64,000 nucleotides of DNA from a virus (taxonomy: Duplodnaviria; Heunggongvirae; Uroviricota; Caudoviricetes). The notes under the pieces were generated by a model. It did not search any database. It saw only the letters and a list, made by a program, of their open reading frames with translations, and was not told the origin of the DNA. The first letter of the stretch is position 1; every line of letters starts with the position of its first letter. Location of the stretch: positions 74,236-138,235 of IMG/VR virus record IMGVR_UViG_3300029653_000083; one strand, 5' to 3'. Both the position numbers and the translations under genes were made by a program. This document shows, in pieces, positions 10,416 to 36,338 of the stretch.

Positions 10416-10437
10416 GGTTTCTCCTTCTCGGCATATC

Positions 10438-10885: not shown

Positions 10886-10904
10886 TGTGGCTCTTTCTCT
10901 CATA

Positions 10905-10930
10905 TTTGTGTGAACAATTCCAGTATATCA
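10905..10930 (-). promoter_or_regulatory. motif 1
   Basis: tttgtgtgaacaattccagtatatca. Confidence 0.55.
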
Positions 10931-11022
10931 TATTTAAGAGAAAGCGCAAAAGCGCAAAAAAACAAAAAGCCGTGCAAATACAAAAAGCATTCACACGACT
11001 CGGAAATTTTTACCACTATTAG

Positions 11023-13412: not shown

Positions 13413-13443
13413 GTAATTCTTCCTTTCTTTTTTGCCAAATATG

Positions 13444-13490
13444 AGAGAAGTAGAAGGAAGGAGTAATACGGCAGTCTTCCAATTCCAATC
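13444..13490 (-). promoter_or_regulatory. conserved element motif 2, copy b
   Basis: GATTGGAATTGGAAGACTGCCGTATTACTCCTTCCTTCTACTTCTC (gene orientation). Confidence 0.5.
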
Positions 13491-13500
13491 TTGGTGTGGG

Positions 13501-13809
13501 TCAGAGGATTCGGGTTCCCTTGCGGGTGACGAGCATGATTCTGTTTTCGTGACGGTTCTCGAAAACGTCCCAATTGCCACTCAGGACAGCCAAGCACACG
13601 TTGCCTTTGATGAGGTTCCAACGTTCGTCGCAGTTGGATACGACGTGCTTCCAGTTGATTGGATTGGGCTTGTGGTGGGAGGTTTCCACGATAGCTTCGT
13701 TCATGGGCTTGTCCGCGTAGGTGTGGTCGTAGGTGTTGTCTCCGGCGACTACGCTGATGGTGCCGTTGTCGTGGAAGATTGGCTGGTAGTAGGTTTTGGT
13801 GTCGTTCAT
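13501..13809 (-). CDS. hypothetical protein
   Basis: Internal ATG (MNDTKTYYQ) with AAGGAG RBS. Confidence 0.5.
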   Translation of the reverse strand: MNDTKTYYQPIFHDNGTISVVAGDNTYDHTYADKPMNEAIVETSHHKPNPINWKHVVSNCDERWNLIKGNVCLAVLSGNWDVFENRHENRIMLVTRKGTRIL

Positions 13810-18023: not shown

Positions 18024-19031
18024 CTATCCCTTGTGCGTTTTCTCATACCATTCCACGAATCCCAGCATGGCTTGCTGGAATGATGGTTTGAATTCGCCGT
18101 TTACGGGAATGTTTCTGTTGAGTGGCGTGGTCTTATAGTTTTCCGGTAAGGGTGTGGCGCACCATTCGGGTGGTATCCGGTCGGTGAATGGTTCCTCGCA
18201 ATCGTCGCTGAACATGAGTCCTACGGGCTTGCCGTTGAGGAGGATTGTTGCGTGGGGGCTGATTTGTCCTTTCGCCAACCGGTATTCGCCTTTTGTCGTG
18301 TGTATTGGATAGTGGAAGGTTTCAGGTAGTCCTCCCCGCCGGTATTCGTCGCGTAATAGTCGAATCGGATTATAGTAGCGTTCCAATGCGGGGTATGCCC
18401 ATTCGCATCCGCTCCAACAGTCGCGTACCCTGTCCATTCCGTCCCAGTTTTCTTTCGGATTGGGTTGGATGCTGAGTTTGCGGTATCGGTCGGTTTGGCA
18501 CCAGCGGGTGGGATTGTTCAGGGCATAGTTTGGCGTGGTTTGTTCGGCTAACCGTATGAGAGTGCTGAGGGTGCATGAAGCATAATGTTGCTTGTCGTAT
18601 CGTGCGACAAGCCGATACGGGTCGGCATCATCCTTGTTAAACACAGGCTTCAACACGCGTAAATGTTCCTCCGTTACGGGAATATCAAGGTCGGCTGGTA
18701 AACCCAACACTTCCATCCAACCTCCAAGCCTGTTCGTATCCCACTTGTAATCCTTGCAGTATTGCGCTTGCAACAGCCAAACCATCCAACGGCGCACATT
18801 CCGCATCAGTACGGGATGGGACGCGAATTCGAGAGGACGCCCCAGCATGTCATGATTCACATTATCCGGCGTGGTAATACTGGTTCGATTACCGTACTCG
18901 TCCACTGCCGTCACGACGATATTGTGTCCGGCGTCCACAGCCTTGAACATGTCGCTGATGTTGTCTTCCACGAACGTGGGCGGAATGAGACGCGACTGGA
19001 CTTGACCATTAATCGGCACGGAGAGCATCAT
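18024..19031 (-). CDS. hypothetical protein (335 aa)
   Basis: ORF track. Confidence 0.55.
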   Translation of the reverse strand: MMLSVPINGQVQSRLIPPTFVEDNISDMFKAVDAGHNIVVTAVDEYGNRTSITTPDNVNHDMLGRPLEFASHPVLMRNVRRWMVWLLQAQYCKDYKWDTNRLGGWMEVLGLPADLDIPVTEEHLRVLKPVFNKDDADPYRLVARYDKQHYASCTLSTLIRLAEQTTPNYALNNPTRWCQTDRYRKLSIQPNPKENWDGMDRVRDCWSGCEWAYPALERYYNPIRLLRDEYRRGGLPETFHYPIHTTKGEYRLAKGQISPHATILLNGKPVGLMFSDDCEEPFTDRIPPEWCATPLPENYKTTPLNRNIPVNGEFKPSFQQAMLGFVEWYEKTHKG

Positions 19032-19639
19032 TCACCATCCTCACTATTAGAGGCGAGTCGGGTTCGGAGTTCCCTCAACCGGCCTAACCGTTCCTCCATA
19101 GCCTGAATACGAACGTCAACCGCAGTCAACGTGTCACCATCCGGCTCAGACAACTCATACTTGCCGGACGACAGTCGTTCCAGAAAACTGGTTGGAACAT
19201 CCCATACCAATAATCGGAGTTTGTCGGGACTGAGATTCAACCCCGTGTATAAGCCGGTTTTAGGCCACATGCCATCCACGAGAGCCACATTCGGCATCAT
19301 GCGCGGTGGACGGTCGGGCTGATATTTTTCGACTAGGATTCGACCAGCGAACCAGATAATGTCGCTATCCTGCTTGGAGTACGCGTACAAGTAGTCGTAG
19401 GGGTCGATGGTGACTGTGACACGCTTTTCAGCGTCCACGCCCTTATGCCACCAGAAGTATTTGTCTAAAGCTTCGAACACCAGCCTTTCCACACGCATAT
19501 CGAACGTCCAAGTCTTCAACTTGTCATCAAACGTTCCACCCAACGCGCGGGAGCGACGGGCGAACAACGGATTATATGGAGCCTTAACCTTCAAACGGCC
19601 ATCACTGCGAGTGACCGTAATATCATCAAAACCTGCCAT
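19028..19639 (-). CDS. hypothetical protein (203 aa)
   Basis: ORF track; ATGA overlap with downstream gene. Confidence 0.55.
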   Translation of the reverse strand: MAGFDDITVTRSDGRLKVKAPYNPLFARRSRALGGTFDDKLKTWTFDMRVERLVFEALDKYFWWHKGVDAEKRVTVTIDPYDYLYAYSKQDSDIIWFAGRILVEKYQPDRPPRMMPNVALVDGMWPKTGLYTGLNLSPDKLRLLVWDVPTSFLERLSSGKYELSEPDGDTLTAVDVRIQAMEERLGRLRELRTRLASNSEDGE

Positions 19640-19908
19640 GACAGTTTCCTTTCACTCAAACGGCATACTCTGACCAATGCGCTGATAACCTCTAAAGCCC
19701 CACATGGGCGAAGTCCCGAGGAAGGAAATGCAAGTAAACCCAGTGTAACACCAAGCTGGGAAGAAAAACTAGCCGACAAGCATGCCGAGTGAAATACGAT
19801 ACAATCCAAGCCTCACGAAATCTCATCCAAACGATTGAGGAAGCGGAAGATTCTGCGCCACCGCTTCCAGCAGATTACACCCCTCCACCAATCTGGAAAG
19901 TCCGGAAA

Positions 19909-21138
19909 TCACGGGTGAAAAGCCAGCTTCCGCATTTCACAATGCCTCCGATACCACGCTTTCTCCCGAGCGCACAGTCCACGACGGTGAGTTAGACCCG
20001 ACAGTGTGCTCTCATGGCTCGTCCAAGAATCCTGAACTGTCCGCAATCCCACATGCACGCCATCATATGAGCGGATAAGGTTACGCGCATGCCGTCGGCT
20101 TGCACGCAACGCCTTATGGTGCATGCGGATAAGAATACTGCCGTCATCCTGTACGCTGTATACGCGTTTCAGGAATGTGAGTTGACCGGTGCGACAGTCC
20201 ACTATGCGGGTCTTGCGCTTGTTCAACCGCAATCCCAATTGATTGACATGCCGCTCGTAACCGGCCAGCACACGTTCGGCCTGTTCACGATTCTTGCAGA
20301 AACAGTAGGCATCATCCATATACCGTCCGTAGAATCCTTGCGACATGCACCAGTGGTCAACCTTGTTCAAATACCAGATAGCCATGGTTTGGCTTGTCTG
20401 ATTGCCTAAACCCAAGTGAGGTTCGTCCAATACGAAGATTCTCAATACGGTTAGAATCCGTTCCACATCCTGCTTCTCCCGTCCGGTGCGGGCGATGCTC
20501 CGGTACAGGGTGGAAATCATATCGAACGCTCGTTGGGAGCTGATACTTCCGAAATAGTTGGAACAGTCGAAGATGACAGCATACGGATGCTCCCATTTGC
20601 CCAAAGCCCGCTTATAGTGTAGTTCGAACCGTTTTCGGGCGAACGATGTTCCACGTTTCGGTAGGCTTGCCGCATTATCGTATATCAGTTGGCTTTCCAC
20701 GATGGGGACGAGACTGTTGTCGCATAAGGCGCGTTGCACCACCCGGTCTCGGAAGGATACCGCGCTGATGTGGCGGAGTTTGCCTCGTTCGGAAATGTCG
20801 AATCGGATTGGCGCTCTCTTCTTGTATGTGCCGTCCTCTAATTCTTGGGCGAGTTTCCAACAGTTGACGGCACGCCTATTGTCGAAGTTCAACACTGTGT
20901 TTTTCCATGTGACGCCGCGTTTGCATTTTCTTGCGGCTTGGTAGAGCGCGTCGAATCCGAATGTTTGTTGGAAGTCGATGTAACGGTGGAGCTTCCTGTA
21001 CTTATCATCCGAGCGTTGTTGCAGTCTGCGTTGGCGTCTTCTACGTCTTTGACTCGCATTCACGATTTTAATGCTTCCTTCACTAGGGAAAGAGAAAAGA
21101 ATGGTTGAGGGCAGGTCGTCGGCAACAACCCAAGACAT
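19909..21138 (-). CDS. diversity-generating retroelement (DGR) reverse transcriptase
   Basis: RT motifs RHISAVSFRDRVVQRAL, FDCSNYFGSI, YMDDAY. Motif 4 reads LGNQTSQ (SQ signature of DGR RTs rather than the QGxxxSP of group II/retron RTs). TR lies 195 nt upstream. Alternative GTG start ~21060 possible. Confidence 0.85.
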   Translation of the reverse strand: MSWVVADDLPSTILFSFPSEGSIKIVNASQRRRRRQRRLQQRSDDKYRKLHRYIDFQQTFGFDALYQAARKCKRGVTWKNTVLNFDNRRAVNCWKLAQELEDGTYKKRAPIRFDISERGKLRHISAVSFRDRVVQRALCDNSLVPIVESQLIYDNAASLPKRGTSFARKRFELHYKRALGKWEHPYAVIFDCSNYFGSISSQRAFDMISTLYRSIARTGREKQDVERILTVLRIFVLDEPHLGLGNQTSQTMAIWYLNKVDHWCMSQGFYGRYMDDAYCFCKNREQAERVLAGYERHVNQLGLRLNKRKTRIVDCRTGQLTFLKRVYSVQDDGSILIRMHHKALRASRRHARNLIRSYDGVHVGLRTVQDSWTSHESTLSGLTHRRGLCAREKAWYRRHCEMRKLAFHP

Positions 21139-21332
21139 GCAATGATGTTGGACGCCCAGCTTAAGGGGCGAGTATCCGTCGTTCCCGACAGTCTTAATAT
21201 CTCCCTCAACCTATTTCACACGCAACCCATTTTTCGAGGGGCCGCGCATTCGACCATATCCCCTTCCCCTTCGGGAGGCTTTCACCCATTGGGCTACTGG
21301 CCTATCTGATGTTAGTTTTTGGTAAGAGGAAT

Positions 21333-21486
21333 CGGGGACAACGGAGTAGCGATTGTTGGCATTGTTGTTGTAGCTGGGGTCGCCGTTCGAGTTCACTTGG
21401 AGGAAATTGTTGTTGTTGTTCGGGTTGGGCGAACGCTCCCACCAATTGTTGTTGTTAGCACCAAGAGGAGTGGAACCGGAAACGGT
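21333..21486 (-). repeat. DGR template repeat (TR)
   Basis: 154 bp, intergenic; 128/154 identical to 22131..22284; 25/26 mismatches at TR adenines (coding strand). Confidence 0.85.
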
Positions 21487-21528
21487 GTCACCATAGTTTG
21501 GATATGGCCGATTTTGTTCAATTATATT

Positions 21529-22044
21529 TTAGGCTTGCGCCCGAGTATCCATTATAGTGTTCGTTTTCGACTCGGCGTTTTTAGCTTTCTTCAACTGGTC
21601 TCGCTCATACTTGACGGCTCCGGTGAACACGCCCATCGCCTTGTAGAGGGTTCCCGCATAGTTCACGAATTTCTTCTCCTTGACGACGGGATTGTATCTG
21701 GGGTCGCCTTCCGGATATTTCCTGTAGGCTTCCAAGTCTTTTTCCCGTGGAGGAAACTCCATCCAATCGTCCACAAGACCGGAGAGTGAGTTCAGCATGC
21801 CTTGGGCCTTGCACAACAGTTGCAGTTTCATCTCATGCTCTTCTACAGTGCTTGCATAAATGATGTCGGCACTGTAGGCGGAGGAGTACATTTCGTAGGC
21901 GATATGCATGACATGCACGGTTTCAATGCAGTTACGGCTTTTAGGCCATTTGCGGAACAGATTTCTGGTAGCCAAGAGCACGATTCTGGCCTGATTCGCA
22001 TATTCGCTTTTGGCTTTTGTACGTTTGCTTGCGGGAACCGTCAT
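21529..22044 (-). CDS. putative DGR accessory variability determinant (Avd-like, basic helical protein)
   Basis: Position between VR-containing target and TR/RT; basic, helical composition; AAGGAG RBS. Confidence 0.5.
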   Translation of the reverse strand: MTVPASKRTKAKSEYANQARIVLLATRNLFRKWPKSRNCIETVHVMHIAYEMYSSAYSADIIYASTVEEHEMKLQLLCKAQGMLNSLSGLVDDWMEFPPREKDLEAYRKYPEGDPRYNPVVKEKKFVNYAGTLYKAMGVFTGAVKYERDQLKKAKNAESKTNTIMDTRAQA

Positions 22045-22076
22045 AGGACTCCTTTTGTGTGAGATTTGAGTTTGGA

Positions 22077-22104
22077 GGGGTGGTGGGGATGAACCCCACC
22101 ACCC
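22077..22104 (-). other. GC-rich stem-loop downstream of VR (DGR-associated hairpin)
   Basis: GGGGTGGTGGGG-atgaa-CCCCACCACCC; 11-bp stem, 12 nt after target stop codon. Confidence 0.5.
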
Positions 22105-22116
22105 AAGGATTGGGGA

Positions 22117-23049
22117 TTAGAAGGAGAAAGCGGGGACAACGGAGCAGCGATAGCCGGCACTGAAGCCGTAGCCGGGGTCGCCGTACGACTTCACTAGGAG
22201 GAAATAGTAGTTGCCGTCCGGGTCGGGCGAACGCTCCCACCAACTGAGGCTGTCAGCACCAAGAGGAGTGGAACCGGAAACGGTCTTGTAGATGCCGGAG
22301 AGAATGCTATTACCCGACCAGTTATTTGTCACCTTACCGTGGAAATACTCGTATTGGCTTCCCTCCTGATTCAACGCTTGGAAACCACCAGAGGTCTTCC
22401 AACCATCGTATAAGGTTGGTACGAGTTCACGGTAGGAGACGAGCCATACTTTGTCTGCCGTGGCTGACGCGCTTGAACCGACTGTGCTTCCGTAGGCCAT
22501 GTTGTTGGTTTGTTTCAGCACGGTTGTGACGTTGTTTTGGAAGTCGGTTGGGAATTGGTTCCAGATTTCACCATTGTTCATCTGATTGCGGAGAAGACTG
22601 TCACGCCAGCCGCCATTATTGGTGTGACTATTGTTCATGGCATACGCTTTCGGTAACGCGTTCCAAGCCATGAACGTCAATCCTGCTTTTCGTCCACTTC
22701 CGTCGGCTTTGTCGTCGTGGAGGATGCCGATGAGTCGGAATGGGAGGTTCGAGCCGTCTGATAGGGTGAGCGTGCCTTTGACCCCGTCGGTCAGGTTCTT
22801 TTCCATTGCGGCATAGTATGTGCTTCCTTTGCCTTTCTCGCTTAAATCGTCGGCAATCTGTTTCAATCCCGCCGCGTTATAGCCCGCGTAGCAAACCTTG
22901 TCCACGCCAGTATTGCATTTGGCTGGTTCGGCGGCTATTGCACTACCGGTGAGGAAGCCGCCGCAGACCGCGCTCATGATGGCGAGGGTGGCGAGGAGCC
23001 GCCGAACCATGTGACGGCTCCCGTGTGATTGTGTGGCGTGTTCGCCCAT
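22117..23049 (-). CDS. DGR target: secreted variable protein with C-terminal CLec-like variable region
   Basis: Start MGEHATQ with AAAGGAA RBS 12 nt after adhesin stop; signal peptide MVRRLLATLAIMSAVCGGFLTGSAIAAEP; last 51 codons are the VR; ends GYGFSAGYRCSVVPAFSF. Confidence 0.75.
   Translation of the reverse strand: MGEHATQSHGSRHMVRRLLATLAIMSAVCGGFLTGSAIAAEPAKCNTGVDKVCYAGYNAAGLKQIADDLSEKGKGSTYYAAMEKNLTDGVKGTLTLSDGSNLPFRLIGILHDDKADGSGRKAGLTFMAWNALPKAYAMNNSHTNNGGWRDSLLRNQMNNGEIWNQFPTDFQNNVTTVLKQTNNMAYGSTVGSSASATADKVWLVSYRELVPTLYDGWKTSGGFQALNQEGSQYEYFHGKVTNNWSGNSILSGIYKTVSGSTPLGADSLSWWERSPDPDGNYYFLLVKSYGDPGYGFSAGYRCSVVPAFSF
22131..22284 (-). repeat. DGR variable repeat (VR)
   Basis: See TR; lies inside the 3' end of CDS 22117..23049. 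Confidence 0.85.
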
Positions 23050-23060
23050 TCTTGTTCCTT

Positions 23061-26000
23061 TCACTGTTCTTCCTTCTTTCGTAGGAGGATGATTGCCGCG
23101 ACGAGTCCGCTGATGCTGACGAGCATGAGGAGCGGCAACAGCAATCCCATGCCCGTGTGCGGCATGGTCGCCAACCATGTTTCAGGCAGGACACCCGCAT
23201 CCACATGCTCCTTGGTTGGAGCATCTTGGGTGAGGGTGATGGTCAGCTTGTTGGCTTCATCCGTGTAAGCATCCGAATCAGTGGAGCTTCCATCCGTCGC
23301 AGGAGTCTTGTCTCCCACATCCGGCGTGGTGAAGTCCCGGTGGTTCACTTTGGTGAATTGGATACGGTATTTGTTGCCGTTCGCGTCCAGACGTTCGAAA
23401 ATGTACTTGCCATCCTTGTCGGTCTTGGTGGTTGCCAACTGTTTGCCGTTCTCGTCAGTCAGAATGACCGTCTGACCGGCGAAATGCGTGTTCTCACCTT
23501 CATCTTGAATGCCGTTCTTGTTGGTATCCTCCCAATACAGGCCGCTGATGGAACCGAGTTTCTTCGCGGTGGTGGTTGGTGTGATGATGGTGCCGACTTG
23601 GTCGCAGGAGTCCTCATCGGACGTGCTGAACCAGTGTTGGCGTCCTTCCTCCGTATAGTCGGTGTCGGTGCGGCATGTCGGATTGCCGGTCACGTCATTC
23701 GTGTTCGTATCCAGTTTGGATGCGTTCGGAGGGTCCGGCTTGGTTTTGCCGCTTGCATGTGGCGTGCCTGAGTATGGCGTGTGTTCGGAGGTGAACCATG
23801 CTTGGTTGAGAATGGTCTTCGTATTCTTCTTGACCCACTCGTCTTTCTCAGTTGGAGACCACTTGGTAGTATCCGCAGTTTCACGGTCAACGGTGCCAGT
23901 GAAATGGTAGATGACATAGCCGCCCGACTCAATCGCATACGGCAGATTGTACGTGCGGGTCGTCAACCCCTTCTCCGTGGACTCGCTCAACGGTTCGACC
24001 GGTACGGCGGTCGGGTCGGACGATACGACCATTCCCTTCAAACCGGTGGAACGTGCGCCACCCGTCTTGCCGTCACCATACGGGTCGAAGCCCGCAATCA
24101 TGACCTGCTTGCCGACAATGAGCACGTCACGGTCGCCGCCCGCAACGTCGGATGCGGTAATGCCCGTATCGATTGGCGTGGAAACAATATCCGCGTTGCC
24201 GCTCGTACTGCCGTTGGTCCAATACCTGCCTGTACCGGTCTTACCGTTCGCTAATTGGCCGTCACCATTCCAGCCAGCCGCCCACAAGTGTTGGTTCTTG
24301 TCGATGGCGTAGAAAGTGTTGTATCCGCCACCGATACGGGTGATGTACCTCAGATTAGACACATTGGACTGGCCGATACCGCTATCACCTCCGCCGACGA
24401 GCACTATCACTGTACCCGCGTCAGTCAACCCGTAGGCGTTGCCGAATGAGGCGACAACTTGCGTGAAACCAATAGAGAAAAACTCGTCGCCGTCCACCAC
24501 ACAACCGCCGTAGGACGTCAACGCGACCCACCTGTACGTGCTGGCGCTGACCTGCGTGAACGTTTTACCCGACTGGATTTGCGTCCACGTTGAATACGAG
24601 GTGGAACTGACTTTTCCGACCACCCACAAGGTGCCGTCACTTGCTATCGCCACAGTGAACTGGTTGCCGCACGCCACGTCAACAAACGTCTTATCTTCTG
24701 CGACTAGAGTCCACTGGTCACGATTATCCGTATCACCCGTACCCAATTGGCCTTTACCGTTCCAACCAGTCGTGTACAAGTGGCCGTCCGTGCTGATGGC
24801 GGCGGAATGCTTGCCACCGGCGGCGACTTTCAGCCAACTACCGTTGACGATGGTCGGCTTGTTCACGTTCGTTGGGGTAGCGGTATTCGTCGTGTCAGGC
24901 TTGAAACCTAATTGACCATACTGGTTGTTACCCCACGCATACAACAAGCCCTCGTTCGTCAACACAAACTTATGGTCGCCACTCGTCGCAACCTGCTTCG
25001 CACCACCAGACTCGATAGAAACCGTACCGGCGGTAGCGGAAACATCATGCACGTTGGCGCTCATACGGTCAGAAACGACACTGGAAGTATCAAAACGACT
25101 AGTGCCAGAATTCTGTACTTTGACATCCCAGTTGATGACGCATTTCGTATCGGTGCAACTGGTGCCGGTGACGGTTTTGTCCACGGTGGCTTTCGGGTCT
25201 GGTTTCGCATACCCGTAGTCCACGTTCTTCTGGTCTGCGCCGATGCCTAGGTGGATGTCGTCGGACGTGTCTTTCGCGTTGGACTTGATTTTGTTCGACC
25301 AGCTTCGCGTGTTCGTCACGTTTTCGAGCTTGCCATAGTAGGTTTTGACCTGCGTCTGCACGCCATCACCCGTACTGGTGCCAGTGTTGCGTTTCACCGA
25401 AGTACGGTAGGTGCCGGAGTGGAGCAGGTTGAACTCGTAGTAGCCGTCCTTGTCGGTCTTCACCGTTTTGACGGCCTGCCAGCCGCCGCTTGAATCCTGC
25501 TTGCCGAGGGTGACTTCCACTCCTTCGATACGTTCTTCACTGTCACCGATGAGCGTGTTCTCATCCTTATCCCACCAGACGGTGCCGCTGATGCTACCGG
25601 CCACTACCTTCGCCACGTCAGGCCACGGCTGGTTGCCCGCCGGTTTGTCGGAAGCGTCGGAATAATAGTTACGGCCAAGCCACAGCGTGTACTTGTCGTC
25701 TTTCACATTGTCGGATGGGGTGAGCGTGATGGCGCCGTTCACCGCCGAATAGGACAGTTTATCGTCGGACGCGACGACTGTGCTGGTCAGTCGGATGGCG
25801 ATGATGTTCTTCTTCTCGATGGAGGACAATTCATCCCATGTCTTCCACTCGTAGTCAGCCGGATTATCCGACTTCTTTCCGGTGGTGGTTGAATAGTAGA
25901 CGGTCGTACTGGTCGAATTGTCCATATTGACCGTGACGGGCTGGGTCAGTTCGTAGGAGCCATGATAGTTGCTGTATCCACGCTCATATTCGACCAGCTT

Positions 26001-28439
26001 GTCCTGCACGTACTTCTCATCACCATTCGCAGGAAGCAGTAGCATGCTATCCATGGTGCCGGTATGTCCGCCGCCCTTGCCGTACACGTTGAACTCCCAA
26101 GTAAGCGGGTCACTGATTTCAGCCTTCGTGGTCTTCACACGCATGATGCCATTGTTGGTTTCCGCATTGGAGACAGGGAATGGGACGCTGGGCGTATTGC
26201 TTTTGATGGTTTGGGCTTGCAATGCGCCGTTCTCGTCAACGTCCACGCTCATATTCGCACTGGCGGTCACAGTCCCGGTGGCGAGATTGGATACGATGCC
26301 ACTGAAATGCAGGTCAGGCAAAGTGGCCGACCCCATACGGTCTACTTCCGGCGTGACTTTGCCGGAACGTGGCGTGAACACGAGATTATTCCCGTCCACT
26401 TTCATCTGCCAGAACGAATCATCACAGGTCGGATTGTACAAGCCTTTCGGTTTCGGCACCGTGATGGTCGGCGTCATGCTCGTATTGGACAGGAGAATGG
26501 TGCGCAATTGTTCCGTGACCGTATAATCCACTCGCATGCCGGGAGTCAAATCGACTGCGCTTCCGGACGGGTGATTGGAACTGTTGTTCGCATACACTTG
26601 ATTGCCTTCACCATCGTAGGCTTTTAGACTGATGTCGATACTGGTGGTCGGGTCTACCGGCTTGGCAATCCACACCCAATTGGTGACGCTCGCCTTATCG
26701 TCTTCGGTAAGCCATGCGGTCAGCGTATCCAAAGCTTCCACATTGCCTTTGGACACGTCGGCTATGGCGAGCGTGTTGAACGTGACCTGAACGTTCGGCG
26801 CACCCTTTCCCAAAGTCAAAGTGTCGGGGTTGAACGTCACCCGAATCTTCTTGACGTTCGGAGCGTCTGTGTCGGATGGTTCCCCGTCATGCCAATTGTC
26901 TTTGCTATCATCCCATTGAACTTTGTAGTCGGAAACCGGAGCGCCGTTCTGGGTGACTTCCAAGCTTCCATCCCACCGCATGCGCGTATTATCCCACTCG
27001 TCCTGCATGGTCGGCGTAGTGTTTTTAAGCTTGTCCGCCGTAACGTTCGCCGCATACATTTCCAAAATGGTTTTGACTTGCGTTCCACGGGACACGGTGT
27101 CGCCGGAACCGTCGGAATAGTAATGGTAGATGTCGGCTTTGCCTTCGGCGGCGTCGAACGTCAGATTCTCCTTGTCGAACATGGTCTTGGACGCAGTGTT
27201 AGGACGTTGCAGTCCTTTGCCGAACAGTGGAATCTTGCCAGCTGGAGTCGGCTTGAGCCGTTGGATGATGGCTCGTGACCAGTCATTATTCGCGTACGGG
27301 TAGCCGACGCGGGCACCCGTATCCTTGTTGTAGGTGCTCTTGTCCCGTCCAATGTTCCAGCCGGGTTCTCCACCTTTGCCCATGTTCAACAGTGCGTCGC
27401 CGTTATCGTCTTTGACGCTGAACACGGTTTCGTCGGGAACAAGGTGGACATCGTAATATTTGACGTCTCCTTCTTTCATGTTTTTGAGCGCGTCGGTTCC
27501 GGCGGGAATCCTGTAGCTGATTGTCGCCGCCGCACCGTTCTTGCCACTGGATACGGTCAGATACTGTTCTTTATCACTGTTACGGGTAATCCGCTGACCG
27601 CCTACAGTCCACACGGTGTTCTGCGGGAAGTCGGAAATATCCACTTTGGTAGTCCAATCGATGCTGGTGGACGCGCCCTTCGTGGACGAATAACCCGGAT
27701 AGGTCAACGCGTCGGCACGAATAGTGAAATCGCCGGTCGCGTCGGTGTTCTGACTCCAATAAGTACGATGCTCATACGAGTATTGGCCTTTCACCGGATT
27801 GCCGCCATTGTCAATGACCAAGTCAGCCGCCGGAGCGGATACTACAGTCAGCTCATCCGTACGATACGTGGTTGACGTTCCACCTTCGCGGGCGACGACG
27901 ATTTTCGGAATCTGACCCGGCTTGACCAAGCCTCCCGTGTCTTTTGCTTTCAGATAGAAGGTTTGGGTCATGGTTTCCACGCCACCGGCTGGAACCGTGT
28001 AGGAGCAGGAGCCGTCACTGTTTTTCTTCGCGGTGACGAGTTGTCCCGGCTGGCAGAAGCCACCACCGTCAGCAGTCTGCAAATACGGCGCGTCGTCCAA
28101 GTCGAACTTCACGTTGATGGTACGCTTGCCCGCCGCGTTGAAGTTCAACGTCAATGAATATTCGACCGTATCACCGGATGCGACCACGCCATCGGTAGGG
28201 GAATCATCGCCCGTGGCGAACCCGTTCTTCGAATTCACGAACGTTTGCGAACTCGTGCCATGCCCCGTACCGTCGGCTTTCTTAACGATTTTCGCAGTAG
28301 CATACGCAGGTTTCAACTCGTCCGCATGCGCTTTTGGAGAGGCTACCGGATTGGTCATGCATGTCAGGCCGGATGCCAGTGTGGCGATTGCGGCCAATAA
28401 TGCTACCGGATGTGCCACATGCTTTTTGAGAATACCCAT
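23061..28439 (-). CDS. giant cell-wall-anchored adhesin (RCC1 beta-propeller repeats, CnaB/SdrD-B-like domains, MPHTG sorting signal)
   Basis: Signal peptide; RCC1 repeats (YAWGNNQYGQLG, TTGWNGKGQLGTG); GxxWxDxNxNGxxD CnaB-like motifs twice; C-terminal TMPHTG + hydrophobic + RKKEEQ. Confidence 0.8.
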   Translation of the reverse strand: MGILKKHVAHPVALLAAIATLASGLTCMTNPVASPKAHADELKPAYATAKIVKKADGTGHGTSSQTFVNSKNGFATGDDSPTDGVVASGDTVEYSLTLNFNAAGKRTINVKFDLDDAPYLQTADGGGFCQPGQLVTAKKNSDGSCSYTVPAGGVETMTQTFYLKAKDTGGLVKPGQIPKIVVAREGGTSTTYRTDELTVVSAPAADLVIDNGGNPVKGQYSYEHRTYWSQNTDATGDFTIRADALTYPGYSSTKGASTSIDWTTKVDISDFPQNTVWTVGGQRITRNSDKEQYLTVSSGKNGAAATISYRIPAGTDALKNMKEGDVKYYDVHLVPDETVFSVKDDNGDALLNMGKGGEPGWNIGRDKSTYNKDTGARVGYPYANNDWSRAIIQRLKPTPAGKIPLFGKGLQRPNTASKTMFDKENLTFDAAEGKADIYHYYSDGSGDTVSRGTQVKTILEMYAANVTADKLKNTTPTMQDEWDNTRMRWDGSLEVTQNGAPVSDYKVQWDDSKDNWHDGEPSDTDAPNVKKIRVTFNPDTLTLGKGAPNVQVTFNTLAIADVSKGNVEALDTLTAWLTEDDKASVTNWVWIAKPVDPTTSIDISLKAYDGEGNQVYANNSSNHPSGSAVDLTPGMRVDYTVTEQLRTILLSNTSMTPTITVPKPKGLYNPTCDDSFWQMKVDGNNLVFTPRSGKVTPEVDRMGSATLPDLHFSGIVSNLATGTVTASANMSVDVDENGALQAQTIKSNTPSVPFPVSNAETNNGIMRVKTTKAEISDPLTWEFNVYGKGGGHTGTMDSMLLLPANGDEKYVQDKLVEYERGYSNYHGSYELTQPVTVNMDNSTSTTVYYSTTTGKKSDNPADYEWKTWDELSSIEKKNIIAIRLTSTVVASDDKLSYSAVNGAITLTPSDNVKDDKYTLWLGRNYYSDASDKPAGNQPWPDVAKVVAGSISGTVWWDKDENTLIGDSEERIEGVEVTLGKQDSSGGWQAVKTVKTDKDGYYEFNLLHSGTYRTSVKRNTGTSTGDGVQTQVKTYYGKLENVTNTRSWSNKIKSNAKDTSDDIHLGIGADQKNVDYGYAKPDPKATVDKTVTGTSCTDTKCVINWDVKVQNSGTSRFDTSSVVSDRMSANVHDVSATAGTVSIESGGAKQVATSGDHKFVLTNEGLLYAWGNNQYGQLGFKPDTTNTATPTNVNKPTIVNGSWLKVAAGGKHSAAISTDGHLYTTGWNGKGQLGTGDTDNRDQWTLVAEDKTFVDVACGNQFTVAIASDGTLWVVGKVSSTSYSTWTQIQSGKTFTQVSASTYRWVALTSYGGCVVDGDEFFSIGFTQVVASFGNAYGLTDAGTVIVLVGGGDSGIGQSNVSNLRYITRIGGGYNTFYAIDKNQHLWAAGWNGDGQLANGKTGTGRYWTNGSTSGNADIVSTPIDTGITASDVAGGDRDVLIVGKQVMIAGFDPYGDGKTGGARSTGLKGMVVSSDPTAVPVEPLSESTEKGLTTRTYNLPYAIESGGYVIYHFTGTVDRETADTTKWSPTEKDEWVKKNTKTILNQAWFTSEHTPYSGTPHASGKTKPDPPNASKLDTNTNDVTGNPTCRTDTDYTEEGRQHWFSTSDEDSCDQVGTIITPTTTAKKLGSISGLYWEDTNKNGIQDEGENTHFAGQTVILTDENGKQLATTKTDKDGKYIFERLDANGNKYRIQFTKVNHRDFTTPDVGDKTPATDGSSTDSDAYTDEANKLTITLTQDAPTKEHVDAGVLPETWLATMPHTGMGLLLPLLMLVSISGLVAAIILLRKKEEQ

Positions 28440-29344
28440 TAGTGTTCCTTCTTTGCGTGGTTTTTTCTACGGATGATGAGAATGGTGATGATGATTACCG
28501 CAAGCCAGAAGCCGCCGACGTACAGCATGAGCCATTGGTTCGTGTGGTCTTTCGGCGCGTTTTCGGGTTTGGGCGCGGGGTGTGGCATGCTGGCGCGCGT
28601 GCCGGTCACCAAGAGTCGCTTGTTGTTGATGCCGTATGGCGTGCAGGTCAATAGTGTGGAGAGGTCTTTTCCGGCGACGATTTTCAGTTTAGAAAAGTCG
28701 GATGGGTCTACCACACTAATATCCGTGACCTTGTAAGCGAGCATATGTCCGGCGGTTATCAAATAGAAGACGTCTCCCTTTTTGGCTTCACTGCCGAAGC
28801 CTCGCAGCTTGTCGAACATGAGCTGGTCGGCCAAACCCGTGTGAGCGGATATGACAGTATGCGTGTTCTTGCCACCGACGGGGAGACTGGAACCGTATAA
28901 GTGTCCAGCTCCAGCGGCCAACACATTTTGCGACGTGCCATGCCGGATGGGCAGGTTGATGCCCAAGCGTGGATATTTGATGGTAGCCATGACCCCATCC
29001 TTGGGGGTGGATAGTTGCTTCCGATACGTGTTGTCCGTTTCGGACTTGTTGACGCCCGTCCAAGGGTCTTCCGCCTCACCAAGAATGGGCTGGCCTTCCT
29101 CGTATAGGCGTTGATTGTAGGCTTGCGCGTCCGCATACTCTTGGGCGATTCGTTTCACGTCAGTGTTTTCCACGGCTTGCGCGTGGGAGTCGGTCAACCG
29201 GTTGGATTGGCTGCTGTTCGAAATCATGAGAATGAATGGGATGGTTCCGGACAGGGCGGATAGGATTAGGCAGAGAAGTCCCGCTATGGCTCGATTTCCC
29301 AAGCCTTTCGGTTTCGCCGTATGTTTTCCCAAAACCCCTCCCAT
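28439..29344 (-). CDS. class C (pilus-associated) sortase
   Basis: DPW lid motif, His motif ISAHTG, catalytic TLLTCTPYG, C-terminal TM anchor. Confidence 0.85.
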   Translation of the reverse strand: MGGVLGKHTAKPKGLGNRAIAGLLCLILSALSGTIPFILMISNSSQSNRLTDSHAQAVENTDVKRIAQEYADAQAYNQRLYEEGQPILGEAEDPWTGVNKSETDNTYRKQLSTPKDGVMATIKYPRLGINLPIRHGTSQNVLAAGAGHLYGSSLPVGGKNTHTVISAHTGLADQLMFDKLRGFGSEAKKGDVFYLITAGHMLAYKVTDISVVDPSDFSKLKIVAGKDLSTLLTCTPYGINNKRLLVTGTRASMPHPAPKPENAPKDHTNQWLMLYVGGFWLAVIIITILIIRRKNHAKKEH

Positions 29345-29451
29345 GCGGTTATAAAGAATCTAAAAAGTGGCGTGTCGATATTTGGGTTCCCGACACGCCA
29401 AGCGGAACATTTCATGCTTTTCCAACCGTCAAACGGTCAGAAAAGTTTTCT

Positions 29452-29479
29452 CATACGGCAGTATTCCAATCTCCAATCT
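29452..29479 (-). promoter_or_regulatory. conserved element motif 2, copy c
   Basis: GATTGGAGATTGGAATACTGCCGTATGA (gene orientation), ~115 nt upstream of sortase start, overlapping pilin 3' end. Confidence 0.45.
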
Positions 29480-31209
29480 CACGCCTTGCGACGAAGCAGC
29501 AGGGCGGAAGCGCCAGCCAACAGGACGGTCATCACGCCGAAGATGGACAGCCAGACCGCACCGGTCTTCGGCATGTCAGCGATGTTGCGGGCGTTGATGA
29601 CGGTCACTCCATCGTCACTGGTCTTGGAGGCCAGATGGTTGGCATCATCCTTGAACTTGGTGAGGGACGAAGTGCTGGTGTTATGGTCTTTGGACTGGGC
29701 CACGCCAACGGTCAGAGTGAACTCCGGCAGAATGCTGCCGCCGAACGGACTCTTGGTTTCAGTCACCGTGTAGGCACCGTACAAGCCCTTCAAGGTGATG
29801 ACGCCATTGTTCTTATCGGTGGTGGTGATGTCGGCGCTTGCGGTAGCGGCCTCAGTCGAGTCGGCAACACGATACTCGTTATCACCCACCTTGACGAACT
29901 TGACGATATTGCTCTTGGCATCCTTGATGTTGAACACGGCACCCGCGAGCGGAGCATTGTTCGTATCGGTCTTGGTCAGAGTGAACTTGCCGACGTACAC
30001 GTAGTTGGTGTCGCCCGGAGTCTTCTCATGGTCGGTGACGGTGTTCGGATTATGGGAGTATTCGACCTCGCTCGTGTTGGTGTCAACACCGTCCACGTGG
30101 GCGTTCTTGTTCACGGTCATGTCATAAGTGACAAGCACTTCCGCATCGACCGGGAACGTGGTCTTGGCGGCGATGATGTCGGAAGAACCATCAGCGGTCG
30201 GGGCGAACAGGATATGGAACTTGCCCGCCTCGGTCGTCACCTTGTAATCCTTGCCAGCAGTCAAAGCCTTACCACCGACAGTGACATTCACACTATCCGG
30301 GTTGAAAGTCAGACCATCCGAATACGTATCGTTGAGCGCATAATAATAATGGTCGTAGCCAGTCCAAACAGGCACCGCGCCGCCCATCGTGAAAGAGACC
30401 TTCTTGCCGATGGAGGTCTTGGCTACCGCATAATATTTCTTCCCTGCTTGGCGAGCCCCCTCATCCTCATGGTCCTCACCGATTTTCTCATCCACATCAC
30501 CATTCTCAACAGAGGTGATAGCCTTCCTGACTGCGGCGTCATGCACCTTATAGTCCACGGTGCCCAGCGTGTAGGTCTTGTCGCCGTTCTTCAACGTGGT
30601 CTTGCCGTCGATGCCGGTGCCGTTGAACATGACGATGGACGCCTGACCGGCCGTGGTGGTGTCCACGACCGCATACACGCCCGGACGGACTGATGCGGTC
30701 ATATGCTTGGCGTCGGCGCCCTTGGCGAACGCGGTGCCCTTGTCGCCGGTGACGGCGGCCTCGTTCTTCAACTGGTCGATGAAGTCACGAAGCTTGCCAG
30801 CCCACGGGCTGTTCTCGGAATCAAGGAGATTCTGCACGACCCACACCATCGGATTGGACGCATTATAGTCGTATCCGGCAGTCTGGTCTTTCTTGGACTG
30901 GGTGTCAATATGGGCTTTAGTCAGTGCGTCAGCAATGGCAGAAGCCTTGCCCGCGTCAATCAGGTCAAAGCCGGTAATATTAGTACCATCAGTCTGCGCA
31001 TACGAATAGTAGGCGAGCGGCACAGCCTTCAACGTGCGATTGCTAATATCACCATTAGCAGCGACGGTCAACGTCTGACGAGCAGCCTCACCAAGCTTGG
31101 ATGCGTCAACACGAGTATCAGCCGCCATGGCGGAGCCAACTCCAGCCAAACCCATGGCACCGGCCACAAGCGTGGCGACCGTTGCCTTCAACAGGTTTTT
31201 GGTTTTCAC
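29479..31209 (-). CDS. sortase-dependent pilin / fimbrial subunit (MPKTG sorting signal, E-box)
   Basis: Signal peptide; E-box-like YTVTETKSPFGG; C-terminal ADMPKTG + hydrophobic + RRKA; adjacent class C sortase. Confidence 0.7.
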   Translation of the reverse strand: MKTKNLLKATVATLVAGAMGLAGVGSAMAADTRVDASKLGEAARQTLTVAANGDISNRTLKAVPLAYYSYAQTDGTNITGFDLIDAGKASAIADALTKAHIDTQSKKDQTAGYDYNASNPMVWVVQNLLDSENSPWAGKLRDFIDQLKNEAAVTGDKGTAFAKGADAKHMTASVRPGVYAVVDTTTAGQASIVMFNGTGIDGKTTLKNGDKTYTLGTVDYKVHDAAVRKAITSVENGDVDEKIGEDHEDEGARQAGKKYYAVAKTSIGKKVSFTMGGAVPVWTGYDHYYYALNDTYSDGLTFNPDSVNVTVGGKALTAGKDYKVTTEAGKFHILFAPTADGSSDIIAAKTTFPVDAEVLVTYDMTVNKNAHVDGVDTNTSEVEYSHNPNTVTDHEKTPGDTNYVYVGKFTLTKTDTNNAPLAGAVFNIKDAKSNIVKFVKVGDNEYRVADSTEAATASADITTTDKNNGVITLKGLYGAYTVTETKSPFGGSILPEFTLTVGVAQSKDHNTSTSSLTKFKDDANHLASKTSDDGVTVINARNIADMPKTGAVWLSIFGVMTVLLAGASALLLRRKA

Positions 31210-31388
31210 CTTTGTTTTCCTTTCCTTACTAGACCCGGCGCGCGTTCATTCCTCGAACGGGGTCAATATCGGATTACATTCCTAATATACCGCACGCACC
31301 CTCATTAAAAACCTTGAAAGAATGCTTTCAGCCCTTAAAAATAAGGAGGGCATGGCTTCCCATACCCTCCAACATATCCCTGAACGGG

Positions 31389-32786
31389 TTAGTTTCCGGA
31401 CTGTTCGGAACCTTTCCCACCTAGTGCGGAACCGGCGGCATGACCGGCCACCATACTGTTCAGCAAGGCTTTCAAATCGATGCCCAAGGATTGAGACAAT
31501 CCCTCACTCAACTGGCTCACACTGTTCACCGTGTCGCCCACGAGCTTCGTGCTGTTTCCGTCGCCATACATGGTGATGTGGTCAACCTTGGTGAGCGGTT
31601 CGGCGGCGGCTCGAACCATGTCGGGGAGAATCTGAATGTACTGTTGGGCGAGGATGTACGTGTTGTTCATCGAGTTGTACGCCTCGCCCTGAGCGCGGAT
31701 TGCCTCCGCCTCGCCCACGCCCTTGGCCTGTGCGGCGGAACCTTCAGCCTTGCCTTTGACCTCGGTCGCGTGCGCGTCCGCGTCGGCGGTGGATTGGGTG
31801 GCCTGAGCCTCCTGCTGGCGTAGATACAGTTCCGCATCCGCATGCTTGCGGGTCGTGTACACTTGCGCGTCGGCCTGCTGTTCGGCGGCGTATCTGTCGG
31901 CGTCGGCCTTCTTGCGGATGGTCGCGTTCAGTTTTTGCTCTTCGATTTCGGCGTTCTTCTGTTCGAGGACTGCCTTCTTTTCGGCGGCGGCGATTTCCGC
32001 CTCCTGCTCCTTGACCTTGAGGGTCTTGGACTGTTCGGCGGCGGTGATGCCCTTCACCGCGTCAGCCTCGGCCTGCGCCTTGTCGGAGATGGATTGGAGT
32101 TCGGCTCGTTTCAGGTCGAGCTGGTTCTGACGGACGGCCACATCCTGTTCCGCGTTGATGGACGCGAGCTTCGCATTCCGGCTGATTTCGGCGGCCATTT
32201 CAGCGCCCATGTTGGCGATGACGTTCTGACGGTCGGTGAAGTCTTGAATGTTGAACGTGGTCAATTGAAGGCCAAGCCGTTCCATGTCCACGCGGGCGGA
32301 TTCGGCCACGGTCGCAGCGAACGTGTCCCTGTTCTCCATGAGCTCCTTCAACTCGGTCTTGCCGATGACCTCGCGCAGCTTGCCCAAAAGCACCTGCGTC
32401 ACGTCCTTCTCCATGCGCTCCTTGGACTGGTTCAGATAGTTCTTGGCGGCGTTCTCCAACGCCTTCACCTGTTTACCGTTCTCGTCCACGGTCATGGTCT
32501 CGGATGCTATCTGGAAGTTCGCGACGGCGTTCACGTCGATGAGGATTGCGTCCTTCGTCGGAATCGGCGTGTCGGTTCTCAGGAGCGACTGCACCGCTCC
32601 GAGGGAGAGCTAGTCCACGCGCATGATGAAGGGTATGATGAACGCGCTTCCGCCGGAAACGAAGCGTCGTCCACCCGGCCCGGTGATGACCATGACTCGG
32701 TCGGCGGGGCAGACCTTGTAGCTTGCGGTTGCGAGCAGGATGATGAGTATCGCCACTGCCGCGACGATTATCAATGTTGTTGGCAT
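31389..32786 (-). pseudogene. flotillin / SPFH (band 7) family protein interrupted by in-frame TAG at ~32610-32612
   Basis: N-terminal TM + SPFH start (MPTTLIIVAAVAIL..GGSAFIIPFIMRVD) is in the same frame as ORF 31389..32594 (LSLGAVQSLLRTDTPIPTKDAILIDV..); separated only by one amber codon. Confidence 0.6.
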
Positions 32787-34574: not shown

Positions 34575-36338
34575 TCAGATTGCGTCCGGGAACTGTTCGT
34601 TCGGAGAGAATTTGAGGAGTTTCACAGTCGCTCCCTCACGCCATTTGTTCCACGCTTTGATGGTGATTCCGACGATGCGTCGGCGGGTTGGACGGTCGCT
34701 GTGCGCTCCACGCTTGTTGATGTCGAACAGCGTGTTGCGGAGTACGAGAATGGGGCTTCCCTCGTCAAGGTTGGCGCCGGTGGCGAGCATGTCGAAGAAC
34801 CGTTCGCACGCCTCACCGTCGATTTCGTTGAACGTCCAGTAGAGGAGCGCGGCCATGCTGATGGACATGAGATGGTTGCTTTTCGTGTAGAACGTGCTGG
34901 CCTGTCGTAGCGTATCCTCCAATTGCGGAGTGCTTTCGATGAATGCCAACAGTTCATTTCGGGTCGGTGACATGTTGTTGACGCATGCGGCTTCCACACC
35001 CAACTGTTCGCTCAGATAGATGGAACGGGCCACGGTGGAAAGCTGTTTGGCGTTGTTACGGCCTTTCAGTTCGAGCACGTTAGCCATGGTGCGGCTCTTG
35101 CCCGCATCCATGGTCTCCTGCGTGTCTTCGGGCAGTCCGCGAATGACCAGAGTGCGGAACGGAACACCGGATTCGACGCATGCGAGGAGCCTGTGCTGGC
35201 CGTCCAACAAGCGTCCCGTGTTGCTGAATTTGATGGCTTCGCCGTTCATTTTCCAAGCCTTCTGCGCCATGGTTCGGGCGAACAGTTCGACCTGTGTGCG
35301 GCTCACGTTGCGGTTGTTGGTGTTCACGCCGAGCATTTCCTTGGCAACGTCCGGAGTGATGGTTTCGACCCGTCCGGTGATGCTATCCCAATCGTATTCG
35401 TCGGTTTCACCGGCATAGGATGGCGTGGCCTTGGGTGCTGGCTCTTCCGGTTTCAAATGGATGAGCAACGTGGTTTTCGGAGCGCCGGAATGACGTCTGA
35501 TTTCGGTTTTCGGTGGTTTCACTTCGACCGTCTCGTACTGTTCGGATTCCTCGACCTGATTCATGGCGAACGCGAACGCTGTCATGGTGAAAGCGAGCAT
35601 GAACCTGTCCACGCTACGTTTCGGAGGGAACTGTCTCATCCCGTCGATGATGCGGGTGGCGTCCGAATGGGTGATGTATGGGCAGTGGTTCACAACCGTG
35701 TCCAGTCCGTCCTCGTATTCCTTATGGGTGAGGAAGACGAATGGTGCGAGGGGAGTACGCGCCTGTGCCATTCCCCTGAAGCATTGGCCGACCTCATTGT
35801 AGATTTCACCAACCTGACGGTAACGTGAAACAGTGTCGATGCCGTACTCGTCCACGGGATTCGTGTACTCGTATTCGTTGCTTTTGAAGATGCGTTCGTT
35901 GTATCGACTGGCTTCGCGTAGTCCGGGGCAACGTCCGAAACCGAGTGTGGTTCCGCTGCTTTTCGTACCGTCAGTCCGTTTCAGATTGTTCTTGCTCAGC
36001 CAGTAGGCTTCCATGTCCGCGATGAATGTTTTCGCCGCGACTTTCTTGTCGAGGTTTCGTCCGGTCATACGGGCGAAGTATTCGCCTTCGACGCCGGTGA
36101 GTACCGGCAGTCCGGTTCCGACGAACAGATTATCAGGCAGTAGGCCGTACCATTCGGGGTTGATTTCATGGTCGCTCATGTAGGAGAGAATCCGTCCTAC
36201 GCTGTCACGGTCGATGAACACGGTTCGCGCGTTGGCGAACGGGTCAACGTCGAGATTCAACGCCTTGCATGTCGGGAGGAGGTCTTTCTGAATCATGGTC
36301 ATGAACCGTGGTTCGGTTTTAATGTCTTTATTAGGCAT
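34575..36338 (-). CDS. ParB/sulfiredoxin-domain protein (587 aa)
   Basis: C-terminal half carries ParB-N-like motif FSNTGRLLDGQHRLLA; N-terminal half unassigned. Confidence 0.55.
   Translation of the reverse strand: MPNKDIKTEPRFMTMIQKDLLPTCKALNLDVDPFANARTVFIDRDSVGRILSYMSDHEINPEWYGLLPDNLFVGTGLPVLTGVEGEYFARMTGRNLDKKVAAKTFIADMEAYWLSKNNLKRTDGTKSSGTTLGFGRCPGLREASRYNERIFKSNEYEYTNPVDEYGIDTVSRYRQVGEIYNEVGQCFRGMAQARTPLAPFVFLTHKEYEDGLDTVVNHCPYITHSDATRIIDGMRQFPPKRSVDRFMLAFTMTAFAFAMNQVEESEQYETVEVKPPKTEIRRHSGAPKTTLLIHLKPEEPAPKATPSYAGETDEYDWDSITGRVETITPDVAKEMLGVNTNNRNVSRTQVELFARTMAQKAWKMNGEAIKFSNTGRLLDGQHRLLACVESGVPFRTLVIRGLPEDTQETMDAGKSRTMANVLELKGRNNAKQLSTVARSIYLSEQLGVEAACVNNMSPTRNELLAFIESTPQLEDTLRQASTFYTKSNHLMSISMAALLYWTFNEIDGEACERFFDMLATGANLDEGSPILVLRNTLFDINKRGAHSDRPTRRRIVGITIKAWNKWREGATVKLLKFSPNEQFPDAI

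Follow-up and report, generated by a model that had tools for sequence, protein, structure and literature searches.

The locus described here raises the question of what a diversity-generating retroelement (DGR) is doing at the end of a row of genes for a sortase-built pilus, and whether the protein that it diversifies works with that pilus or only lies beside it. The stretch of DNA that was analysed, 64 kb in full and hereafter called the window, comprises positions 74,236 to 138,235 of the IMG/VR record IMGVR_UViG_3300029653_000083. All coordinates refer to the whole window unless another contig is named, and the genes of interest form a single row on the minus strand between 19.9 and 31.2 kb. 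An initial annotation of these genes had proposed that the element diversifies a secreted lectin-like protein acting together with its own pilus. The analysis favours the same answer: a sortase pilus adhesin probably works with a secreted, DGR-diversified lectin, and both would belong to a mobile module carried on a megaplasmid.

The gene content of the row supports its identification as a class C sortase pilus operon. The first gene (29479–31209) encodes the predicted major pilin, a protein of 576 amino acids (aa) with a signal peptide, an E-box and a sorting signal, recognized by both Pfam and NCBIfam models. It matches PF16569 (GramPos_pilinBB, 1.5e-18) as well as the SpaA prealbumin-like domain and the isopeptide-forming fimbrial domain TIGR04226 (4.9e-15), while its match to the SpaH/EbpB model NF033902 (6e-22) falls under the cutoff of that model. 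The E-box reads YTVTETKSPFGG, with E484 as its Glu, and a segment resembling the pilin motif, LGTVDYK, lacks the Pro of the canonical YPK and contains K221 as the candidate Lys. Both K221, in the form LGxVxYK, and E484 are invariant in 28 of 28 members of the pilin clade. The next gene (28439–29344) encodes a class C sortase of 301 aa with an EDPW lid, the catalytic Cys within TLLTC and a C-terminal transmembrane anchor, which reaches 223.7 bits against the class C model NF033745 (cutoff 160) and matches PF04203 (5e-21). Pilin and sortase are accordingly found where, and with the motifs that, the initial annotation had described them. The stop of the sortase gene overlaps the start of the third gene (23061–28439), whose 1792-aa product is a putative tip or ancillary adhesin. 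The RCC1 repeats that had been read in this protein are present, together with SdrD_B domains: Pfam recognizes WD40_RLD/RCC1 (2.5e-46) and two copies of SdrD_B (1.7e-26), arranged as a first SdrD_B domain, an RCC1 beta-propeller (residues ~1140–1400), a second SdrD_B domain (1632–1750) and a sorting signal. No Pfam domain, even at E ≤ 1, is recognized in the N-terminal 960 aa. The pilin ends in ADMPKTG, a hydrophobic stretch and RRKA, and the adhesin in ATMPHTG, a hydrophobic stretch and RKKEEQ, so that the unusual endings reported for both substrates are seen in the translations; these two are also the only open reading frames (ORFs) of the window with a sorting signal.

The last gene before the retroelement is the DGR target (22117–23049), which follows the TGA of the adhesin gene after an 11-nt spacer containing AAGGA. 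The adhesin–target junction holds no terminator-like site, and the two genes would be expected to be co-transcribed. The upstream ATG is taken as the true start of the target because homologues have Thr at the internal Met, and this gives a product of 310 aa with a signal peptide, an AxA site and no sorting signal. Its leader combines a basic n-region, a hydrophobic core and a conserved AxA site, which suggests a secreted-type protein that presumably leaves the cell. Attachment as a lipoprotein was considered and rejected as unlikely, because the Cys of the leader is not conserved; this Cys fits no lipobox either, and it is the AxA site that is conserved. Within the mature protein, Cys45 and Cys53 are conserved and the C-terminal end, VVPAFSF, is invariant.

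The target matches DUF6273 (PF19789, 5e-14) and adopts a C-type-lectin (CLec) fold in which the variable region (VR) of the DGR forms the C-terminal binding face, in agreement with its early description as lectin-like and secreted. In the lectin-fold comparison, the highest value (13.6) was obtained for the N-terminal DUF6273 domain of the Thomasclavelia ramosa immunoglobulin A (IgA) peptidase (9QA6), followed by the C-terminal domain of Legionella Lcl (5.8), a Bacteroides fimbrial protein (5.7), the DGR target TvpA (5.1) and dozens of C-type lectins (~4–4.7). DGR targets with this C-lectin-like domain, DUF6273, have already been reported from gut phages (PMC10743442; bioRxiv 10.1101/2024.10.15.618418).

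That this gene is diversified, and that the process continues, can be read from the retroelement itself. The VR occupies the extreme 3' end of the target gene (22117–22284, codons ~266–302), and the template repeat (TR), rich in AAC/AAT codons, lies at 21319–21486. The two form a 168-nt direct repeat of 83% identity in which every internal mismatch falls at an adenine of the TR. This A-only pattern and the E-values of the hidden Markov model matches are both far beyond chance. The reverse transcriptase (RT) gene (19909–21138) encodes 409 aa with an RVT_1 match (3e-13), a YMDD motif and the sequence LGNQTSQ, which we take to be the DGR signature [I/L]GxxxSQ; its nearest NCBIfam models, those of group II intron RTs and defence RTs, all remain below their cutoffs. 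Five metagenomic contigs that carry the exact sortase were used for comparison. Their pilin and sortase are 100% identical to those of the window, their adhesin differs by 2–3 aa, and their TR is the same at 168 of 168 positions, while their VRs differ from the VR of the window at 19–23 nt. Within these contigs, 19–24 of the 22–27 mismatches between TR and VR are at TR adenines, and the same A-directed pattern holds in a further contig (L006). Since the TR is invariant while the VRs differ between near-identical contigs, the DGR is demonstrably active in nature, with ongoing diversification in human gut populations. Among 62 close homologues of the target, an entropy of 2.8–3.1 bits is reached only at residues that derive from adenine-containing TR codons (266–302), and the target family comprises dozens of clusters at 85–94% identity. 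No second VR exists in the window, and the lectin gene, which had been named as the object of diversification, is the only target there. As a separate observation, four lectin loops outside the VR (residues 140–145, 185–190, 211–221 and 237–248) vary among lineages with an entropy of 1–2.8 bits and are untemplated by the TR; two of the four coincide with segments of lower predicted local distance difference test (pLDDT) values.

The association between lectin and pilus extends well beyond this element. Pilin, sortase, an RCC1 adhesin of ~1830 aa and a DUF6273 protein occur in the same order on a 745-kb chromosomal contig of Bifidobacterium moukalabense (L008), in two further loci from the same chromosomal island (L021/L022), in two loci that resemble mobile genetic elements (L009/L010) and on a Senegalimassilia contig (L013). 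The four proteins of these loci are 44–61% identical to those of the window and diverge in parallel. In these loci, which lack a detectable DGR, the start of the DUF6273 gene even overlaps the end of the adhesin gene by 14 nt. Gene calling gave no RT downstream in L008, L009/L010 or L021/L022. Searches for a TR-like repeat in L008, L009 and L013 were negative; the last of these contigs ends ~1.8 kb past the gene and is less informative. Because these DGR-less loci retain the same gene order, the link between lectin and pilus is no chance adjacency, and the proposal that the DGR target is tied to the pilus gains in strength from the tight spacing or overlap at such distances. In L009, a remnant of 66 aa that resembles the N-terminal part of the accessory ORF of the DGR (see below) suggests that a DGR was once present there. 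The same contig also holds partial DUF6273 copies downstream (a 300-nt copy at 97% identity, at 10502–10801 and 13304–13603, and a 57-nt fragment at 11667–11723), which could be remnants or silent cassettes.

The pairing can be followed further still. In two loci of 40–42% GC (L020/L023), one of them on a 223.7-kb contig, a homologous RCC1 adhesin of 2269 aa directly precedes a DUF6273 gene whose product is 44% identical to the target. Over the full length of this adhesin, identity is 28.6%, and its sorting signal reads FPLTG; the DGR is inverted, and no pilin or sortase is recognized within 10 kb upstream. In a scan of genome contigs, the module was encountered once, in Senegalimassilia; Coriobacteriia contributed DUF6273 proteins of different architecture, and no Bifidobacterium species representative was returned. 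Taken together, the loci compared indicate that the conserved core consists of the RCC1 adhesin and the lectin, to which pilin and sortase have been added in the high-GC lineage, with the DGR either present or lost.

Closer relatives bear on the pairing as well. The first 14 kb of L006 are 100% identical to the window, until about residue 1030 of the adhesin. Beyond this point, in a comparison of positions 14000–20500 of L006 with the window from 23061–25500 (adhesin residues ~1030–1792) through 19000, a divergent block spans the RCC1 region, where identity drops to 66% at the nucleotide level, the lectin, the accessory ORF, the TR and the RT. This block reads as a recombination cassette with its breakpoint inside the adhesin gene. 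In a more distant plasmid relative (L019), identity to the window is 74% for the pilin, 81% for the lectin and 92% for the adhesin, while the sortase (97%), the accessory ORF (95%) and the RT (98.5%) are better conserved, a pattern that fits what would be expected of diversifying selection on exposed proteins. The adhesin differences of L019 concentrate in the RCC1 region, at residues 1200–1600; in both comparisons this region is the allelic hot spot of the adhesin.

On these grounds, the following mechanism can be envisaged. The dedicated class C sortase would link subunits of the MPKTG major pilin into a fibre by way of the conserved pilin Lys, and would place the 1792-aa MPHTG adhesin on this fibre as a cap or decoration. 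A Sec-secreted, anchorless DUF6273 lectin, the product of the last gene in the row, would act with this adhesin, most likely by docking on it non-covalently, with the RCC1 propeller as the best docking candidate, and would provide the ligand-binding surface. By copying the TR with adenine-specific errors into ~20 codons of the C-terminal binding face of the lectin, the DGR would allow the population of bacteria or plasmids to carry a large repertoire of adhesion specificities on a constant shaft, sortase and stalk. The more specific proposal, that the ligand-binding tip of the pilus is a separate C-type lectin held non-covalently by the RCC1 propeller and reprogrammed by the DGR into an antibody-like repertoire, is put forward more tentatively.

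Several observations weigh against this reading. The target has no sorting signal, lipobox or recognizable wall-binding domain that would hold the lectin on the pilus. The intergenic region between pilin and sortase (29345–29478) folds into two hairpins (minimum free energy −45.7 kcal/mol, z −1.96), and in the second a U-rich tail comes after a stem of 11 bp; this second hairpin resembles a terminator and is possibly a partial terminator or attenuator after the pilin gene. The block exchanged in L006 could be a simple contiguous recombination tract. Moreover, the lectin is found without an intact partner. In two loci resembling integrative and conjugative elements (ICE-like; L011/L012, with a TrwC relaxase, a single-stranded DNA-binding protein and a GC content of 66%), positions 7445–11029 hold an MPKTG pilin and an intact DUF6273 gene, while of the sortase and adhesin only a 135-aa N-terminal and a 104-aa C-terminal fragment, respectively, are left, consistent with an internal deletion. 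L024 carries lectin and DGR without an upstream adhesin, and L025 has unrelated large proteins upstream; these contexts imply that the lectin does not strictly need the RCC1 adhesin.

Some of these facts speak for an independent secreted lectin, that is, a protein released from the cell to bind host glycans, IgA, microbes or the wall of the producer, and sharing only its regulation and neighbourhood with the pilus. The missing anchoring signal, the loci in which the lectin stands apart from adhesin and sortase and the DUF6273 domains in other architectures of Coriobacteriia would all find a ready place under such an explanation. It is nevertheless unlikely, since the gene stays beside or overlapping the adhesin gene at 44–61% identity, and does so even at 29% adhesin identity in the 40%-GC lineage; in addition, hypervariation of a soluble, anchorless lectin would bring little private benefit to the producer or the plasmid.

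The next alternative depends on the nature of the element. Its DnaB is 53% identical to that of pMP7017, a conjugative megaplasmid of B. breve and B. longum, and a block coding for a ParA/CobQ-like protein, a ~400-aa protein, an AAA-ATPase and a ~1250-aa protein is syntenic with that plasmid. Genes for RepA_C, ParA and ArdC-like proteins are present in the window, whose search for phage structural genes was negative (no structural PHROG match; no match for a capsid, portal or terminase). On account of these findings, a phage nature of the element was rejected. At the DNA level, a megablast search of positions 19000–32000 against phage and plasmid collections gave no match, nor was there a match to pMP7017, and no pilin homologue is found on pMP7017-type plasmids. 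The description of pMP7017 likewise mentions no sortase, RT or DGR, and its sole pilin is the chromosomal Bbr_0114 (PMC10832533, PMC8313286). Among named sequences, B. adolescentis has proteins identical to those of the window and B. pseudocatenulatum a target with 85% identity, which points to B. adolescentis/B. pseudocatenulatum as the host. The longest contigs of the element measure about 215–250 kb; for the exact sortase, the index of the assembly collection lists 539 blocks, and 392 contigs were seen to carry it, while the exact RT occurs in 569 contigs. The element is apparently a widespread, undescribed Bifidobacterium megaplasmid of ~220 kb related to pMP7017, and a literature search returned nothing relevant on a megaplasmid of B. 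adolescentis or B. pseudocatenulatum. IMG/VR lists 16 contigs with this locus (44–217 kb) as viral, and the element is probably a megaplasmid misfiled there as a huge phage.

A mobile element of this kind could use the pilus and lectin to bind the surfaces of recipient cells, as an aggregation factor or stabilizer of mating pairs whose recipient range is widened or retargeted by the DGR, a bacterial counterpart to tropism switching in phages. Such a role would suit the presence of the module on mobile elements, namely the megaplasmid related to conjugative pMP7017 (PMC10832533), the ICE-like L011/L012 with their TrwC relaxase and the mobile-element-like L009/L010, as well as the naming of element proteins from two host species. 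A mating adhesin is nonetheless a rather improbable explanation, because the module is also fixed in a chromosomal island with housekeeping genes on its flanks, where it has no DGR (L008, L021/L022), and because no conjugation genes adjoin it in the window. Furthermore, the pili of bifidobacteria are otherwise tied to adhesion to the host or to mucus.

That a phage-derived DGR cassette with its receptor-binding protein was inserted by chance beside an unrelated pilus operon, as the known role of DUF6273 as a gut-phage DGR target (PMC10743442; bioRxiv 10.1101/2024.10.15.618418) and the viral listing of the element contigs in IMG/VR might suggest, is very improbable and largely refuted by the conserved synteny, since the lectin gene is attached to the pilus operon in several DGR-less loci as well as in deeply divergent lineages, the four genes of the module diverge in parallel, and the window shows the hallmarks of a plasmid and lacks genes for phage structural proteins.

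With the pilus-associated lectin retained as the preferred explanation, the non-canonical sorting signals can be considered in their own right. Met takes the place of the canonical Leu at position 1 in both substrates, in the window as in every homologue of the module: the pilin always carries MPKTG and the adhesin MP[H/M/T]TG, and the signals are conserved in L006, L008, L009, L010 and L013. An earlier search for pilin homologues had yielded near-identical copies only, and a HMMER search against 1.84 billion representatives clustered at 50% identity was used for a broader view, with the best 150 matches tabulated. MPKTG, typically as MPKTG[AS]xW[LM], is carried by 40 of these 150 cluster representatives, nearly all of them the closest relatives, and LPxTG by 79, mainly distant relatives with LPxTGG, while F, I or V occupies position 1 in a few others. 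LPKTG occurs in three close relatives; of the named pilins, that of B. pseudolongum has MPKTG and that of B. saguini LPKTG. MPxTG is thus a stable trait of this large clade of Bifidobacterium-type pilins, a conservative variant that reaches beyond this element, and Leu at position 1 is tolerated or has re-evolved inside the MPKTG clade. From the same endings, the initial annotation had deduced a dedicated sortase–substrate pair, and this deduction stands in part. The stability of MPxTG across the clade argues for selection by cognate sortases, and the motif is conserved in both substrates of every module copy. However, it is a broad clade trait with LPKTG in three close relatives, and the class C sortases of pneumococcal pili accept I, Y or V at position 1 (PMC5640630); thus, no special dedication beyond that of any pilus sortase is indicated. 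No paper on MPxTG sorting signals with a sortase was found in a literature search, which for MPKTG returned unrelated immunology papers only, and the clade of MPKTG pilins defined here should be useful for studies of sortase specificity.

The remaining features of the row concern its borders and the rest of the DGR cassette. A terminator-like hairpin (31345–31370, minus strand), with 11 pairs followed by a T run, lies 3' of the SPFH/flotillin-like gene that precedes the operon, and likely marks the upstream limit of the pilus transcription unit. The SPFH/flotillin-like gene itself (31389–32594, minus strand) has lengths of 401, 459, 465 or 501 aa in sister contigs, or is split into 58 + 401 aa, which suggests start-site or frameshift variation. 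Just past the VR, a GC-rich hairpin (22078–22104, minus strand) with an 11-bp stem, a 5-nt loop and no U tract folds as DNA with −16.2 kcal/mol (z −3.83), and none of 200 shuffled sequences folded as well. By analogy with BPP-1, this is where the target-recognition hairpins of DGRs lie, and it presumably serves the same role. The accessory ORF (21529–22044, minus strand) encodes 171 aa in the position of Avd. Its product is predicted to be all-helical by a single-sequence AlphaFold2 model of low confidence (pLDDT 63). It has no match as Avd in Pfam, NCBIfam or the PDB, and Foldseek returned generic helical bundles and a weak S23-family match (E 1.3). Because these searches gave no confident match, it is referred to only as an accessory ORF in the Avd position. 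Homologues adjoin the RT in three other DGR loci (L019, L023 and L024). Two overlapping ORFs of 203 and 335 aa without a family match (18024–19639, minus strand) directly follow the RT gene and are kept with the DGR in L001–L005, the five contigs with the exact sortase, as well as in L006 and L019. Further away, genes for plasmid cargo or maintenance include a protein with a GmrSD_C-type restriction endonuclease domain (58624–59649, plus strand) and a 587-aa protein (34575–36338, minus strand) that matches PHROG 5931, a family of unknown function (4e-70). Scans for tRNA genes and Rfam families found nothing.

DGRs are most abundant in the human gut, and their non-phage targets are understood mainly in the type V pili of Bacteroides. 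If the preferred explanation is true, DGR-driven variation of adhesins extends to the Gram-positive sortase pili of B. adolescentis and B. pseudocatenulatum, which are major health-associated commensals. A constant shaft, sortase and stalk combined with ~20 varying lectin codons would then offer a natural system for finding out which ligands commensals track, be they host glycans, mucus, IgA or bacteria, and the locus suggests a route by which an anchorless subunit could enter a sortase pilus. Each component is known, and it is their combination, in which an anchorless gene product joins a DGR to a Gram-positive sortase pilus on a widespread megaplasmid, that appears to be new: a literature search for a DGR coupled to a sortase pilus found none and returned only an unrelated preprint on a Bacillota megaplasmid.

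Among known systems, the closest in architecture are the SpaH/EbpB-type pili, including the SpaA-type pili of Corynebacterium, FimA of Actinomyces and the pil systems of Bifidobacterium. Their class C sortase likewise has a lid and TLxTC, their major pilin combines a CnaB-type domain with an E-box Glu, the conserved pilin Lys and a sorting signal at the C-terminus, and there too a large ancillary adhesin bears a sorting signal of its own. In contrast, the signals are here MPKTG and MPHTG instead of LPxTG, the pilin motif is YK instead of YPK, the adhesin contains an RCC1 propeller, and the operon ends in the gene of an anchorless lectin under the control of a DGR. A non-Leu first position and dedicated SrtC enzymes are also features of pilus islet PI-1 of Streptococcus pneumoniae (RrgA YPRTG, RrgB IPQTG, RrgC VPDTG; PMC5640630), whereas the present system, known from its sequence, has Met in both substrates, a single sortase and an actinobacterial lineage. 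As regards the element, it belongs to the same size class as pMP7017 (190–220 kb; PMC10832533, PMC8313286).

On the side of the lectin, Mtd of the Bordetella phage BPP-1, TvpA of Treponema denticola and LdtA of Legionella have the same CLec fold, the C-terminal VR and adenine mutagenesis from a TR with AAC codons, in the same order of target, accessory gene, TR and RT and with a hairpin after the VR. However, Mtd forms the tip of a phage tail fibre and TvpA and LdtA are lipoproteins, while the protein described here has a leader resembling a type I signal peptide and is encoded in a pilus operon. The DUF6273 targets of phages (tentaclins, Mtd-like; PMC10743442, bioRxiv 10.1101/2024.10.15.618418) contain the same C-lectin-like PF19789 module, and cases in which the DGR was lost and the target kept have been reported for them as well; they are receptor-binding proteins of virions, whereas the present family is encoded by a plasmid or chromosome and linked to a sortase pilus adhesin. 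The DUF6273 domain of the Thomasclavelia ramosa IgA peptidase (PDB 9QA6; PMC12402451) is fused to an M64 protease and is not diversified by a DGR, unlike the stand-alone lectin. Finally, the type V pili of Bacteroides carry DGR-diversified adhesive subunits (bioRxiv 10.1101/2024.11.15.621889 / Science 2025), in a study that mentions neither sortases nor Bifidobacterium and only refers to an Actinomycetota DGR group enriched in infants (bioRxiv 10.1101/2024.11.15.621889). The resemblance to them is one of function only. Those pili of Gram-negative Bacteroidota form by strand exchange, and what varies there is itself a pilin, of the type V (FimA/Mfa-like) kind, whereas the pilus proposed here would be built by a sortase in a Gram-positive bacterium and would owe its variability to a separate, anchorless subunit.

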